Below, one piece after another: positions 10,270 through 19,459 of a stretch of 29,642 nt of DNA; within the stretch, counting starts at the first letter, position 1, and each line of letters starts with the position of its first letter. Location: positions 1-29,642 of the IMG/VR virus record IMGVR_UViG_3300045580_000182. One strand, given 5' to 3'. The translations under genes were made by a program, and so were the position numbers. The notes below the pieces were generated by a model. The model had not been told where the DNA came from. It did no database searches and saw only the letters and a program-made list of their open reading frames with translations. This stretch comes from a virus (Duplodnaviria; Caudoviricetes).

Positions 10270-10466
10270 TTGCGGCGTCTCCGTGGCGTCATGTCTGCCG
10301 ACTCAGCGACCGGCTCCACGCTCGCCGTCTCGATCAAGTCCTGCTGGGCGTTCCGCACCTCGGTGGCGTACTCCCAGGCGATCAGGCTCAAAGCCTGCCG
10401 CTCGGGGAGGTCGATCACCTCGCCGGCCTTGTAGGCACCATGTGCCCGCTTCATTCGTATTTTCAT
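10266..10466 (-). CDS. Small head-region protein
   Basis: MKIRMKRAHGAYKAGEVIDLP; stop/start overlaps on both sides. Confidence 0.7.
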   Translation of the reverse strand: MKIRMKRAHGAYKAGEVIDLPERQALSLIAWEYATEVRNAQQDLIETASVEPVAESADMTPRRRRK

Positions 10467-11200
10467 TCTTCGCCTACCTTCCATGCAGACTTAGGAGGCT
10501 TCCGCGTCTCCTGCCACTCGTTGCAATACTGAAACACCGGCTGGCCGAGTTCCTGGCTGGGCCACGTAATCACGTACTCGCCGTGCCCGATGCAGACACG
10601 GGGCGTGATGTAGAGGCGGTTGCCAGACGCCTTGAACTGCTTCCAGAACCAGATGTCGGAGTCGATTCTGCCGTCCCCCCAGGAGCCGCTGGGGTCAGGC
10701 TGTTCGTGGAACCACGGCTTCTTCATCCGCCGCAGGGCAGCAGTCGAGATGATGGTGCACCCAAAATGTGCCGTATCCACCTGCTGAACCGGAGCGCCGA
10801 ACCACTCACGCGGCACCGATGTCACGCCACCCGGCGGCGGGTTGTCCAGCGTGTCGAGGAGCGTGAGCATCGGCCGCCCGTCTTCCCGCTTAGTCTGGAT
10901 CGGGGCAAGGGCGTCGCACTGGAAGGTCATGGCCAGGGCGAAGAGATGCTCCACCGATTCCCTGCAAGTGAAGCTATCCATGTCGAGGCAGAGGATGTAT
11001 TCCGTTGTCGGCTCGAACTTCTCCATCATGCGGGTCAGCACTTGCGACCAGAACGCACCCTGCCCAAGCGTGGGCCGGATATGCAACGGCATGAGGGATT
11101 CGATGAAGCCGAACACATTGATGAGCGGCCCGAATCGTGGCCCCGACAGGATCGCCTCGCACCGCACTTCGACCGACGAATTGCCGACTTGAACGAGCAT
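10463..11200 (-). CDS. GT-A fold (GT2-like) glycosyltransferase
   Basis: YILCLDMDS (DxD), TAHFGCTII, KKPWF, DSDIWFWKQFKASG, CIGH; GGAG RBS before ATG 11200. Confidence 0.7.
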   Translation of the reverse strand: MLVQVGNSSVEVRCEAILSGPRFGPLINVFGFIESLMPLHIRPTLGQGAFWSQVLTRMMEKFEPTTEYILCLDMDSFTCRESVEHLFALAMTFQCDALAPIQTKREDGRPMLTLLDTLDNPPPGGVTSVPREWFGAPVQQVDTAHFGCTIISTAALRRMKKPWFHEQPDPSGSWGDGRIDSDIWFWKQFKASGNRLYITPRVCIGHGEYVITWPSQELGQPVFQYCNEWQETRKPPKSAWKVGEE

Positions 11201-11212
11201 GGTCACTCCAGA

Positions 11213-11253
11213 AAACAGAAACGGCGGGGAAGGCAATCGCCATCCCCGCCGTC
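11213..11253 (-). terminator. Intrinsic terminator-like hairpin after the capsid genes
   Basis: Minus strand ACGGCGGGGA TGGC GATT GCCT TCCCCGCCGT followed by TTCTGTTTT. Confidence 0.65.
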
Positions 11254-14407: not shown

Positions 14408-16280
14408 CGCTGCCCCTCTTCTTGCGGCTCCGCTTCTTCGGCTCCGGTGCTGGCTTGTCCGTGATCGTCTGCGGCGAATCGTCCACCCATACATCCACGC
14501 TCACGCCAGCCGCATCGGCAGCGTCAGCCTTGAGCGTGTCGCCACCGACGAGCAGTACCTGGCTAAACGCGTCGGCGTAGTCGCCAAGCGTCTCCATGAC
14601 CGTGGCCCGGTCCTGCTCGGGCCGCCGCGAGATCATCACGACCGTGTTCCCATCTGCTACCGCCTTGCGGGCGAACTCGCCCCACAGGGCGGGGTCGGCC
14701 GCAAACGTCCGGTCGAAGTCGATGCTGACGGTCATCGCCCGCAACTCTGGCAGCGAGCGTCCCGCCGGGGCGGCGATCACCGGCTCGGCTTGCGGCGGCT
14801 GCGCAGGCTCCGCTGCTGGCACGGGCTGGCTCTCGACCACCCCGGCGAGGATCGCCGTAACCTGTGCAGCGGAGATGCTCGGGAACGACGCCGCGATCAT
14901 CGCCGCCGCACCTTCCTTCGTGAGCAGGCCCGCCGGCACCTGGGCGATGATGGCAATCAGCCCCGTGATCTGCGCACCGTTCAGCGACACATCCGCAACC
15001 TGCGGAGCCTCGGGCTGCGTCGGCTCGGGCGTCGCCGCCACCGGCTCGCCAGCCGCAGCCGCAAGCCCGCCTTCGACCGCCTGCCCGTCGATGCCGCTCC
15101 CCGGCTCTTGCTGGGCCAGCACATCCTCCGCAGTCGGCGGGGCACCCAGCGTGCCCATGTTCAGTGGGTGGTAGCGAACCTCGCCGCCTTCGACCGGGTC
15201 CATGTTCTCCAGTTCGCGGATGTCGTTCGTGTTCAGCACGCCGATGTCCCACATCGCACGGTAGTACGCTGACCGGCTCGAGGAGTCGCCACGCATCAGC
15301 CCGCGAATGTCGAACTCAACCAGATAGCGATCATCGTCGGCGATGAGGTCACGCATGAACGCCGACTCAAACCGCCGCAGCCACGGCAGGATGGTGTGCG
15401 TGACGAACTTCTCTTCGTCGTTCGGGCCAGCACTGCCAATGCCAAGCACCCAACCCGGGCACCGGAACAGACGTGCGATCTCTTCCAACTGGTAGCGGCG
15501 AAGCTCCAGAAACTGGGCGTCGCTGTTGCTGCTCTGCGGAATCTCAAACGGACGCAGCCCGCCCGTCAGCACCGCCGTGTTGTGGGAATTGCCCACGCCG
15601 CCATGCCGCCGGTCCCACTGCGACCGGAGAGCCTCGCGGGCCTCCGCGTTTAGTTGCCCTTCGGTCGAGAGTACAAACCCGGGGCGGGCACCGGCCGCAA
15701 AGAAGCGTGCCCCGTGCAACTCGCAAGCCCGGGCTAGTGCGATAGCGTCCTTGCACTCCTCCACAATCGACATGCCGTTGACGCCGTCATCAGACGGGCC
15801 GCGAACCTGGAGGATGAGCGACTCGTTGATCGGCCGCTCGTTGCCCTTGTCCTCGCGGTACTTGTACCGCAGCCGGCCGTTTTCCAGCCGCTCGATCTTC
15901 ATCCGCGACGGGTGCAGCGGGTGAATCTCGCCCGCCTTCAGTTCACTGAACGCATCGCCCCACAAGCCGACGTGAAACACCGCCTGCTCGCGCCACTCGA
16001 AGCTGGTCTGCCATCCGTTCGGCTGGGCGTGCAGTTGGCGATACAGGGGAAGCTCCCGGGCGATCCGCTTGCCGCCCCCGGCCGTCCGCTCGAGAACATG
16101 CAGCGGAAGGCTCGCCACCGTTTCGGCAATCACCCGTAGGCAAGAGAACACCGCCGCAACCGTGTGGGCGTTGTTCGCGTCGATCCGCACGCCGGCATTC
16201 GACCGGCTGCTCGGCTCGTCATCCCACATCCGCTCTTCGCCGGGGAGCCAGAGGATGCGGTGGTCTGCTTTGGAGATCAT
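14391..16280 (-). CDS. HK97-family portal protein with long C-terminal extension including a HAD-like domain
   Basis: VAAVFSCLRVIAETVASLPL, PNGWQT, DAQFLELR, EIARLFRCP, NDIRELENMDP; tail contains DFDRT...ISRR...K...WVDD; ATGA overlap with terL. Confidence 0.93.
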   Translation of the reverse strand: MISKADHRILWLPGEERMWDDEPSSRSNAGVRIDANNAHTVAAVFSCLRVIAETVASLPLHVLERTAGGGKRIARELPLYRQLHAQPNGWQTSFEWREQAVFHVGLWGDAFSELKAGEIHPLHPSRMKIERLENGRLRYKYREDKGNERPINESLILQVRGPSDDGVNGMSIVEECKDAIALARACELHGARFFAAGARPGFVLSTEGQLNAEAREALRSQWDRRHGGVGNSHNTAVLTGGLRPFEIPQSSNSDAQFLELRRYQLEEIARLFRCPGWVLGIGSAGPNDEEKFVTHTILPWLRRFESAFMRDLIADDDRYLVEFDIRGLMRGDSSSRSAYYRAMWDIGVLNTNDIRELENMDPVEGGEVRYHPLNMGTLGAPPTAEDVLAQQEPGSGIDGQAVEGGLAAAAGEPVAATPEPTQPEAPQVADVSLNGAQITGLIAIIAQVPAGLLTKEGAAAMIAASFPSISAAQVTAILAGVVESQPVPAAEPAQPPQAEPVIAAPAGRSLPELRAMTVSIDFDRTFAADPALWGEFARKAVADGNTVVMISRRPEQDRATVMETLGDYADAFSQVLLVGGDTLKADAADAAGVSVDVWVDDSPQTITDKPAPEPKKRSRKKRGSDGGEV

Positions 16281-17843
16281 ATAAAGAAGATTTCTGGCGT
16301 GCCGCTCGGCTGTTGCTCGGCACCCATCCACGCTGCGATGCCTTCGCAGCAGGCCACGATGCCGTCAATTCGCTCCGTGCTCTTCGCCTTGCTGGGGTAG
16401 ATGTTGCCGTGCCGATCCTCAGCCACCGCACAATTCGACGCATTCCACGAAAACACCGGCTGCCCGCCATGCCGCACGCGGCCCGACAGAATCAGGTTTT
16501 CGAGAGTACGGAGCGGTGCACTCATGGCGCGACCGCCCTGCGGATATCCAACCACGTCCACCCCATCCCCTTGCAGCATGTTGGCGATCATCTGGCCGTT
16601 GAACTTCAAGTCCACCGCCAGCCGCCGCACGCCGTAGCGATTGCAGATTTCAAGAATGTCACGGTGCAAAACCGTGTAGTCGGTCACGTTGCCATCAGTC
16701 ACCCGAATGTGCCCGTCCCGAATCCAGCCCAGGTAATCGACCTTGTCCCGCTGGCTCCGCTCCACGGCATTCGCCTCGGGAATCCAGAAGAACGGCAGGA
16801 TGTCGAGGGAGTTGTCCTCAGGGTCTGGGCAGACGAGCACCAGGGCCGTGAGGTCGTACGTGCTTGCCAAGTCCAAGCCGGCGTACACCGGCCGGTCGCC
16901 GAACTCGCGGAGCGGCCCGCTACACGCGGCCCACGAATCCGGCTTGAAGAACCGCGTGTCCTGCGTAGTCCAGACATTGAGCCGGTATCGCAAAAATGAA
17001 TTGAGCTTCGTCGGGCTCTGCTCGGCCTCGCGGGCATCCGCCGCAAATGACTCCTCCGTGATCGTCTGGCCGAGCGACGGGTTGGCAATCCGCCAGACGC
17101 GAGGCTCCTTCCAGGTGCCATCCGCTCCGCTCTCGGGCGGGGCTGCGTAGATGCACCCGTAGAACGTCGGGTCGAACGTCGGGTCGGCAATGCACTTCTC
17201 CGCGTAGGCGTGCTGCTCCCAGCAGATGCTTTTGCGGTCGTAGCCCGCCGTCGTGATCGACAGGATCAGCGGCTGCCGGCGAGCCGCACCGCCGTACCGC
17301 AACGCATCCCACAATCGGCGATCTCGCTGGGCATGAAGCTCATCGAAGAGCAGCATGTGAATGTTCAAGCCTTCGGCCCGGAACGCATCGGCCGAGAGCA
17401 CCCGATAGAACGAGTTGCTCGCCTTGTGGATGATCGTCTTGCGCGAGTCCACCACCTCGAGCACCCGCGACAGGGCAGGCGACGAGCGGACCATCGACGC
17501 AGCCTCGCGGTAGATGATGCCCGCCTGCTCACGGTCGCACGCGGCACCGTAGATTTCCGCCCCCGGTTCCTTGTCGGCAACTAGGCCGTAGAGGGCCACG
17601 CCAGCGAGCGTCGTGCTCTTACCTTGTTTCTTTGGCAGCCGTCTGGGTTGTGCCCCCGAGCCGCTGTGGCCCAGGGGCACAACCCAGTTCTATGTAGCCC
17701 ACGCGGTATTGCCGCGTGTCTCCGTTGACTCGGCCGAACAGATTGCCGAGCACGTTCTTCTGCCACGGCATCAGCGTGAACGGCTGGCCGGCAGTCTGCC
17801 CCTTGCTGTGCCGCAGGATGCTCTCGAAGAAGTCGAAGCACAT
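16277..17843 (-). CDS. terL: Terminase large subunit; frame interrupted by a 49-nt insert at 17639-17687; start uncertain
   Basis: N-terminal frame has LMPWQ and RQYRVGYIEL; second frame has PKKQGKST (Walker A), LLFDELH (Walker B), ITTAG, GLDLAST, RIDGIVA. Removing 49 nt joins them as YIELPKKQGKS. Confidence 0.9.
17643..17687 (-). repeat. 45-nt hairpin (14-bp perfect inverted repeat plus 6-bp inner stem) inside terL
   Basis: Minus strand CTGGGTTGTGCCCC TGGGCC acagc GGCTCG GGGGCACAACCCAG. Confidence 0.95.
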
Positions 17844-17886: not shown

Positions 17887-18360
17887 TCAGCCGCCTTGAT
17901 GGCGGGCGAAGAAATCAGCCAGTTCGTCTGCGGGCTGCTCTTGCTTCGTGCCAAGTCTCACCCTGGAGGAAGGCGTCAATCCGAACTCGGTCATCAGCGA
18001 AGATTGCAGGCTGACCAATCCCTTGTAGAGCGATCCGGCAGGGTTCGGCTTCACGCCACCGAGGTCCGTTCGCATCACCGGCCCGCTCGCCCGAAGCTCG
18101 AGCAGGCAAGCCTGGGCCGCAGCGTACACCTCGCACAAAGTCGCGAGGGCTTCGCCGTCGCCGGTCGTGAGCACGTTCATGCCGAGCAGGATCGGAACCA
18201 GTTCATTCCACTTCGCAACGGCTAGCGGTTCGACGTTCAGACGATCCGGCATCGGCGGTGCGCCGGCAGGCGCACTTGGCTCACGCTTTGGCGCGCCACG
18301 CTGTGTGCCCTGAAGGATTTTGAGCGGCGTCGGCTTCGGCTTTCGACCACGCGTTGCCAT
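17887..18360 (-). CDS. terS: Terminase small subunit, P27 family
   Basis: MATRGRKPKPTPLKILQG...KPNPA...EFGLTPSSRVRL signature. Confidence 0.93.
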   Translation of the reverse strand: MATRGRKPKPTPLKILQGTQRGAPKREPSAPAGAPPMPDRLNVEPLAVAKWNELVPILLGMNVLTTGDGEALATLCEVYAAAQACLLELRASGPVMRTDLGGVKPNPAGSLYKGLVSLQSSLMTEFGLTPSSRVRLGTKQEQPADELADFFARHQGG

Positions 18361-18490: not shown

Positions 18491-19411
18491 CTAGCTAAAA
18501 AGCAGCTTTTGCCCCGACCATGCTGCGCCTTTACGCACGTTGCACCTCAAGCACGCACACCTGACGTTGTCCCACTCATGGCCTTTGACGCCTGCACTCA
18601 AAGGATAAGGGTGGTGGTCAACTGTCGGCGATCTCGGGTGTGCACGACCACCTGAGACAACATACTTGCTGAGCGTCTTCTTCTTGCAGATATGGCAGCG
18701 ATAGCCATCACGCTCGAAGACAGCGCGAGGCTTCACGCTGGAGTCGTATCGAACTCCATGCTTTCGGCACCTTGTTCTGTGCTCTTTCTTCTTGCGAAAC
18801 TCTTTTCCAGCAGGGCTGTTTCGCCAGCGAGACCTAACGCACGATTTGCACTCTGGTCGCAGCCTCTTTTTCTTAGCGTCACGCCCGACGCATCGGAGCG
18901 AAAACTCTATGCCGCATGTAATACACCTTGGCCTTTCCTCGAAAACATGACAGCAACTTAGCGAACAAAACCGCTGGTCCCTCCTTGGGTCAGGCGTGAA
19001 AGGCTTTGAGCATGTACAGCACAAGCCAGGCTGCCTTTTCGTTTCGACGTTGAAACTCTTGCATGCACCGAGATGCGATGACATTGAGGATCGTATGTCT
19101 CGCAAGACTCCAGCAAGTGACCTGCACATTCTTGCGCGGCGACTACGCTCTGGAGTAAGCCGCTGCCTCATAGCACGCAAATACTCTTTTCTTGCAATCC
19201 CACGGCAGTTTTCGCAATAACGCAAACGACTGGCGTCTGCAGCCAACGCACGAAACTCATTGCCGCAACGGCGGCACTCGTTTGCCTGAGACGCCGGAAG
19301 CCTTCCCTGCTTCCTAGCCTTACATCTCTGCTGCTTACAGCAACCAGGGCAGGAAGCCATATCCTTTCCGCCCAGCGTCGTCCATGACGATCCGCATTTC
19401 CTACACGCCAT
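18491..19411 (-). CDS. Freestanding HNH endonuclease with multiple CxxC zinc motifs (putative homing endonuclease)
   Basis: VFERDGYRCHIC...TVDHHPYPLSAG...HEWDNVRCACLRCNVRKG; AGGAGG RBS; visibly lower GC than flanks. Confidence 0.85.
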   Translation of the reverse strand: MACRKCGSSWTTLGGKDMASCPGCCKQQRCKARKQGRLPASQANECRRCGNEFRALAADASRLRYCENCRGIARKEYLRAMRQRLTPERSRRARMCRSLAGVLRDIRSSMSSHLGACKSFNVETKRQPGLCCTCSKPFTPDPRRDQRFCSLSCCHVFEERPRCITCGIEFSLRCVGRDAKKKRLRPECKSCVRSRWRNSPAGKEFRKKKEHRTRCRKHGVRYDSSVKPRAVFERDGYRCHICKKKTLSKYVVSGGRAHPRSPTVDHHPYPLSAGVKGHEWDNVRCACLRCNVRKGAAWSGQKLLFS

Positions 19412-19459
19412 AGCCACCTCCTTGTGGTGGCCGTAGTGTACATGCCTGCACGGCGTTTT

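Follow-up and report, generated by a model that had tools for sequence, protein, structure and literature searches.

Programmed bypassing by bacterial ribosomes has been established for one cassette, that of T4 gene 60 and its homologues, and has been proposed for one terminase. As outlined in 10.1101/2022.08.31.505936 and 10.1101/2024.12.09.627546, the gene 60/MobA cassette interrupts an essential phage gene by about 50 nt, has its take-off region within a stem-loop and has spread laterally on repeated occasions, and the hairpin gaps that we describe here resemble it in each of these respects. They also have a landing codon related to the take-off codon, an A-rich 3' part and, in 20 of 37 elements, a mini-Shine-Dalgarno (mini-SD) triplet. 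However, gene 60 as described has a stop or hungry codon after take-off, which none of the 37 elements has, and its cassette sits at one site in a topoisomerase subunit (G46/D45), whereas the hairpin gaps lie in genes for TerL, the portal, the baseplate hub and a glycosyltransferase-2 (GT2)-like protein. Their stem (19–21 bp, GC-rich) begins at the take-off codon and fills most of the gap, they use three take-off amino acids, and they have neither a fixed nuclease partner nor a common nascent peptide. The codons for take-off and for landing in gene 60/MobA are identical or read by the same tRNA; the copy studied here is CTG/CTG, but matching is exact in only 8 of the 37 elements and can fall below wobble level.

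Other described systems share single features with these gaps. The byps of Magnusiomyces mitochondria are likewise many inserts in many genes, independent of context and with several imperfect take-off/landing matches, but by the account in PMC5009743 they depend on an unused A-site codon and relaxed mitochondrial ribosomes, whereas the hairpin gaps would be passed by bacterial ribosomes at common A-site codons. The terminase of Streptomyces phage Hau3 has frame-breaking inserts at conserved TerL junctions, with more than one per genome possible; these are 7–10 nt long, begin with the rare UUA and are proposed in PMC10732093 to be regulatory, in contrast to gaps of 47–55 nt with no rare codon. 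Cluster J mycobacteriophages have intervening sequences in virion genes that are missing from close relatives, but these are spliced introns of 265 and ~820 bp that obey the group I U/G rule (as reported in PMC3706429), which none of the 37 gaps of about 50 nt obeys. Finally, the stem-loops of dnaX and HIV gag-pol can block tRNA entry from a position ahead of the P-site codon (as described in PMC7282821 and PMC8861025) and could serve as a model for take-off without a stop, although their spacers are 11–12 nt and they cause −1 frameshifts, whereas the core of the hairpin gaps starts 6 nt past the P-site codon, with a hop that would span 50 nt. The hairpin gaps most likely represent a stop-independent form of translational bypassing that is new.

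The window (the whole 29,642-nt stretch of viral DNA that was analysed) contains one copy of terL, and it is this copy that is split by a hairpin. Read along the minus strand, GAA CTG precedes a 49-nt stretch whose last triplet is CTG, after which comes CCA AAG AAA CAA GGT AAG AGC. The two open reading frames (ORFs) around the insert are halves of one HK97-like TerL, joined at a junction (YIEL/PKK) that is unbroken in 68 of 80 relative loci; past the first CTG the zero frame runs into a stop, and no stop interrupts the downstream frame between GTG 17680 and 16277. We infer that terL starts at TTG 17954, overlapping terS. The stem has 20 bp, the loop 5 nt and the spacer 4 nt. Its folding energy is −44.3 kcal/mol on the mRNA strand (z −7.5; none of 200 shuffles equal) and −35.4 on the other, and it is the top fold among 4,554 sampled 52-mers of the window. 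The GCCC core common to the family begins at 17678, at an offset of 9 nt from the first base of the take-off codon, and the 4-nt spacer before the landing codon has no mini-SD triplet. An Rfam search of the insert returned no family at gathering score, and no intrinsic terminator (hairpin plus U tract) was reported at the insert on either strand. Letters, reading frames and fold thus bear out the structure given in the initial annotation, namely a 49-nt hairpin insert with matched CTG codons splitting terL at Walker A, its second CTG 4 nt past a 20-bp stem with a 5-nt loop, and a stop at 17619 on reading through.

Table 1. Features of the split terL locus and of other genes mentioned in the text (positions in the window)
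Feature	Position	Strand	Basis or remark
terL 5' reading frame, ending GYIEL just before the Walker A P-loop	17685..17954	-	ORF reading, relatives, dN/dS
Predicted take-off codon CTG (Leu), the lowest three stem pairs	17685..17687	-	sequence and fold
Coding gap of 49 nt, site A	17636..17684	-	sequence; unchanged in contigs from four studies
20-bp hairpin (5' arm 17687-17668, loop 17667-17663, 3' arm 17662-17643)	17643..17687	-	fold
Spacer of 4 nt, stem to landing codon	17639..17642	-	4–12 nt and A/C-rich in relatives
Predicted landing codon CTG	17636..17638	-	sequence; resume codon CCA at 17635-17633
Zero-frame TAA, 21 codons past take-off if the gap is read	17619..17621	-	ORF reading
terL 3' frame (HK97-like), with P-loop, Walker B and nuclease domain	16277..17635	-	domain and relative comparison
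terS (Terminase_4), intact	17887..18360	-	domain match
Free-standing HNH endonuclease gene, 308 aa, upstream of terS	18491..19417	-	domain match
Capsid-region gene, glycosyltransferase-2-like	10463..11236	-	Atlas lead; intact here; site E hairpin after GAFW in relatives

To assess whether the insert is authentic, we examined Logan contigs. Contigs spanned it without differences in runs X1, X3, X5 and X15, which represent four studies; the source sample may be X1. Among the contigs, which drop rare variants, no joint skipping exactly the 49 nt was listed. No RNA run was listed for the insert and RNA run X21 gave no match, a result that speaks neither for nor against expression. An assembly artefact is ruled out by these bridging contigs together with homologous inserts in other phages.

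Homologous inserts were sought among viral terL relatives, of which the best 80 of 397 were compared, picked irrespective of inserts. A related hairpin occurred at the same codon (site A) in 4 of these 80, a hairpin at a second site (site B, RRLW/DALR) in 8 and an intein at QGK/S in 3. Pattern scans, one of which covered 14 of the 64 parts of its collection, added terL sites C (AEGL/NI) and D (FDEL/HAQ), site E in the capsid-region gene that is intact in the window, and sites M1 and M2 in a phrog_110 minor tail gene. Of 64 candidate gaps, we kept 37 distinct hairpins at these seven sites and dropped 27 non-hairpin matches in unrelated proteins (fold weaker than −25). Two further scans used the core pattern only, with no take-off codon in the pattern (59 loci), and found terL site F (FLRYR/LNV) and site G in a P22-like portal gene (YFR/ESD), both with take-off CGG and landing CGA or CGG. 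Sites F and G are an out-of-sample confirmation of the take-off/landing rule set out below; their covariance-model scores were 46–49 bits, compared with up to 33 bits for unrelated hairpins. The lake-phage sites thus comprise five conserved terL junctions, one capsid-region gene and one portal gene, and with the hub sites there are nine in all. The terL 3' frame of the window is uninterrupted at sites B, C, D and F. Certain contigs hold two elements (C and B in one terL in L135, B and E in L327/L555, C and E in L513/L549). A metagenome scan (11 of 64 parts, 117 loci) gave no recognisable gene-splitting member among hairpins under −27 kcal/mol, and a literature search, largely without subscription journals, found no paper on these hairpin inserts.

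All elements share one layout: the take-off codon, six bases, the GCCC core, the loop, the complementary arm, an A/C-rich spacer of 4–12 nt and the last triplet. In the lake-phage elements the core is GCCC/GGGGC within GC-rich stems of 19–21 bp. The offset of the core from the take-off codon is 9 nt in 33 of 37 elements; the stem takes in the take-off codon, only the last base of which is paired at site F, and the 3' arm usually ends in its complement. Across the 37 elements the stem pairs are 600 Watson–Crick, 111 G-U, 1 A-C and 4 other, and in the window copy the mRNA strand folds better, in keeping with the proposal that G-U pairs rather than A-C mismatches signal selection at the RNA level. 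In the alignment, 94.7% of cells paired compared with 80.8% in shuffles (none of 500 as high), a covariation figure that is partly inflated because MAFFT offset the CTG-type against the TGG-type elements by one base relative to their codons; compensatory stem changes were also seen within single sites.

Landing triplets follow the take-off codon: CTG pairs with CTG, CTA, CTT or CCG; CGG with CGG or CGA; and TGG with TGA, TGC, TGG, AGA, CGA or CGC. CTG-type landings matched at two or three positions in 10 of 10 cases, compared with a match of at least two positions in 12 of 110 neighbouring triplets. TGG-type landings kept the middle G in 27 of 27, with a match at two or three positions in 10 and the middle G alone in 17. 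Over all 37 elements the match was exact in 8, at two positions in 12 and at one position in 17, counts that are not independent as elements at one site are related. Exactly matched codons, highlighted in the window copy, are therefore not a general trait: CTT and CCG serve as landing triplets in the two other site-A elements, and at site B 17 of 18 landing triplets agree with TGG in the middle G alone. Each of these 17 is an Arg codon, and the landing Arg codon may be translated. A mini-SD triplet is found 4–8 nt ahead of landing in 20 of 27 TGG-type elements and in none of the 10 of CTG type, and the 7 nt before landing comprise 140 A, 68 C, 28 G and 23 T. The gene 60 cassette has its mini-SD about 5–7 nt ahead of landing and an A/U-rich 3' gap. 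It counts against bypassing that an extra triplet identical to the take-off codon lies within the 3' arm of 10 of the 37. The codon after take-off is GGT, GGG, GCT, GTT or GTC in all 37, with no stop and no rare codon (per 1,000 codons in window genes, GGT is used 12 times, GCT 25 and GTC 17, as ordinary codons); the lack of a stop at this position, noted for the window as a difference from gene 60, thus extends to the whole family.

We consider it probable, on the strength of sequence and family comparison, that the insert is a mobile hairpin cassette that ribosomes bypass without a stop at take-off. The ribosome would detach from the mRNA at the CTG that forms the hairpin's foot, and resume after the CTG just beyond it. 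While the take-off codon is in the P site, the G/C core, 9 nt further on, would resist unwinding and fill or block the A site, standing in for the stop codon of gene 60. The stem could then re-zip through the take-off codon, stripping it from the peptidyl-tRNA; this would set the short A/C-rich spacer beside the P site, where the tRNA would re-pair with the best nearby triplet, likely assisted by a mini-SD 4–8 nt before the landing codon where the match is poor. Such a cassette would persist because it is nearly silent at the protein level and is spread by gene conversion, for which a homing nuclease acting in trans, or shielding from inteins or nucleases aimed at these motifs, are candidate drivers.

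The phase of the gaps bears on this reading. Gap lengths of 47–55 nt are spread over all three frames, yet every gap begins after a whole codon; at all seven tested sites a codon boundary is the only cut that keeps the conserved junction, and sites F and G obey the same phase. Nine sites would share one phase by chance about once in 3^8 if independent. RNA excision should ignore codon phase, which argues against the hairpin being a micro-intron that a nuclease and ligase of host or phage, or a ribozyme in trans, would cut out of the mRNA. Conservation of single-strand (G-U) structure would be expected of such an intron as well, 33 of 37 elements agree with a single 5' cut at one distance from the core, and excision would account for the poor landing matches at site B and the absent stop. 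However, the 3' end has no common sequence or fixed distance (spacer 4–12 nt) and tracks the take-off codon only, and the group I rule (exon end U, intron end G) is satisfied by none of the 37 at the junction-keeping register. To our knowledge, about 50 nt of plain hairpin is too small for any known self-splicing fold. Spliced introns do occur in mycobacteriophage capsid and tail genes, as reported in PMC3706429, where the BAKA intron measures 265 bp. On balance a micro-intron is unlikely, and bypassing is preferred because the codon boundary is the only junction-keeping cut, sites F and G share the phase and the 3' end tracks only the take-off codon. Against bypassing, a cut at fixed distance from the core fits as well, no stop or rare codon follows take-off, and landing matches at site B, the weak point of the bypass reading, are poor. 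A 3-nt target duplication could make the two ends alike, but explains neither the phase nor the TGA kept across divergent hub spacers.

Two other outcomes of translation were weighed: two pieces made by reinitiation, or one protein with about 16 extra residues made by frameshifting or stop readthrough in the hairpin. Formally, the window copy could be read by a +1 frameshift or by reinitiation at GTG 17680, as the downstream frame is open from that codon; one +1 shift would join the ORFs in 18 of 37 elements, and GenBank shows the hub carriers as two genes. Across the family, however, a different event would be needed for each frame at a single site (gaps at site B are 50, 51 and 52 nt), 13 of 37 gaps keep the frame but contain a stop, in 6 of 37 no one frameshift could bring the ORFs together, and a usable start codon is missing from 27 of 37. 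Reinitiation at GTG 17680, raised earlier as an alternative, is possible in the window copy alone. One site-A relative (L029) has TAG directly 5' of its landing codon, and the hub gaps end in an in-frame TGA. Either outcome would also split or pad the beta-strand/P-loop junction that most relatives keep unbroken, and the peptides encoded by the gap are not conserved. Reinitiation, frameshifting and readthrough therefore fit some copies, including that of the window, but not the family, and we regard them as very unlikely.

Both gene halves stay under purifying selection. For the terL 5' frame, dN/dS between the window and four close relatives was 0.08–0.11 over 44 codons; against two more distant site-A carriers this short N-terminal part gave 0.53–0.55. 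Values for the 3' frame were 0.05–0.16, those for both sides against close relatives 0.05–0.11, and carrier-to-carrier values were low on both sides of the gap, with pairwise dN/dS also including pre-insertion history. In the hub carriers, the 15 codons from the landing TGA to the annotated start of Larva gp22 showed 7 synonymous changes and 1 non-synonymous change. These results bear on the least probable reading, in which the insert inactivates the gene and carriers are defective or need helper phages or an occasional exact loss of the insert from the DNA. A palindrome flanked by direct repeats can be prone to deletion, and intact relatives were found in the same samples. Yet the elements have diversified with compensatory changes, dN/dS is low in and between carriers, the same allele recurs in four studies, certain contigs hold two elements and the hub gap is kept in cultured isolates.

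Carriers are patchy among near-identical intact genes (in a quick tree without bootstrap, where L135 is a long artefactual row), and inserts travel between genomes in mosaic tracts. L025 and L007 are 100% identical outside, and 74–88% identical inside, a tract of ~700 nt around the insert; L078 and L059 show a similar mosaic tract. SD-like codons upstream of the gap are common to carriers at sites B, C, E and the hub and absent at A and D, and were either co-converted or selected. Site B carriers whose terL backbones differ have rare-codon, SD-like flanks in common (CAA AGG upstream, AGG TAC downstream; for example, L009:2240-2340) that are missing from intact genes and reflect either co-conversion or a signal. 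The insert is real, selected and mobile.

Programmed hopping, put forward in the initial annotation, thus provides the best explanation and is favoured by the comparison of relatives, although exact codon matching does not hold for the family and nothing supports a role in limiting TerL: the insert is patchy, lies in mosaic tracts and also occurs in portal, hub and capsid-region genes. The search for inserts at the same terL codon with covarying stems returned L029 and L035 at site A and eight further sites, with stems both covarying and G-U-biased, so the insert is not unique, and neither half of terL shows relaxed selection. The check for an artefact likewise found the insert unchanged in contigs of all four studies.

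As for what moves the inserts, the HNH endonuclease gene of the window is possible but unsupported as a mobiliser. We rejected this 308-aa type as an obligatory mobiliser, as it occurs with and without inserts and many carriers lack any gene at that position. Only in L035 and L037, the carriers of one site-A element, does a further ORF immediately precede terL; it encodes 313 aa of no known family with a weak HNH lead (L037:1829-2770), lies between terS and terL, overlaps the terL start and recalls MobA before gene 60. Inteins of terL sit at QGK/S, 18 nt beyond the site-A gap (L038:445-1760, L065:1711-3030, L072), and an intein-bearing relative occurs in one sample with the window phage (a loose end at window 17614, run X3). 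The site-A gap could break the target of the terL intein nuclease.

Gaps of the same build occur in cultured phages of Mycobacterium smegmatis. A hub-gene gap was present in 10 of 223 records of one search (carriers including Rando14, Omnicron, AlleyCat, Psycho, Larva, Dadosky and Edugator) and in 20 of 377 of another, and we read it directly in eight records (Larva, Edugator, Spartacus, MadMen, Renaud18, Che9c, Mycofy1 and MOOREtheMARYer). All eight have GG[KR]SP.W followed by 53–55 nt ending in TGA, and this landing TGA is constant though the spacers differ. The hub genes of Llij and OkiRoe are intact, and the K5 protein is homologous to the single-chain Bxb1 baseplate hub gp25. The first start codon of the downstream ORF in Che9c does not come before codon 43. 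In Mycofy1 and Che9c (L494/L495:898-2559), annotated gp17 continues 167 codons beyond the gap in the zero frame, and a conserved 190-codon C-terminal part lies without annotation in the +1 frame. AlleyCat and Edugator are cultured isolates assembled at a coverage of at least 2,061-fold, in a genome announcement that is silent on the hub gap (PMC5679794). Layout and core offset are those of the lake family, but the covariance scores of 28–35 bits overlap those of unrelated GC hairpins, and the viability of the cultured phages therefore supports the window reading by analogy only. A search of the PDB for a chain from any carrier found none, and the cultured phages searched for the window's own junction gave no match. 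A second hub-gene site (RILCW/PDPF; L306:3001-3057) lies on a prophage-like contig, and a search for a cultured carrier of it found none.

If bypassing is confirmed, this second family, with no stop, no fixed peptide context and loose landing, would revise the requirements for hopping, and its natural variants would already chart the rules. The annotations would also be corrected, since gp17 of Che9c and Mycofy1 would have been annotated 167 codons too far, in an incorrect frame. Should splicing remove the gap, a new kind of micro-intron would have been found. Because the M. smegmatis phages carry the gap in a single-copy virion protein, bypassing and splicing can be told apart there. A broader proposition stands evenly balanced: that a hairpin of about 50 nt suffices for bacterial ribosomes to hop once they have read a Leu, Trp or Arg codon, whatever the gene, and that this portable, stop-independent cassette, mobile and silent in translation, has reached terminase, portal and baseplate-hub genes in phages from different phyla, among them long-studied mycobacteriophages such as Che9c and Larva, with hub genes that are at present misannotated.

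Several further observations came from the same searches. The core pattern matched 14 more candidate hairpins, and hairpins with these core arms lie outside genes familiar from the window (L503, L504, L510, L530, L537, L540 and L546). Several P22-like portal proteins (P0023, P0042 and P0080) begin at a Met right after site G and may mark more split portal genes. The glycosyltransferase-2-like gene (10463-11236, minus strand) lies among the head genes of this phage group, and an Atlas lead places its family on 14–35% of cluster members. Among relatives from the genome collection, 6 of 13 are in bins labelled Planctomycetota, and the host of the window phage is therefore likely a planctomycete.
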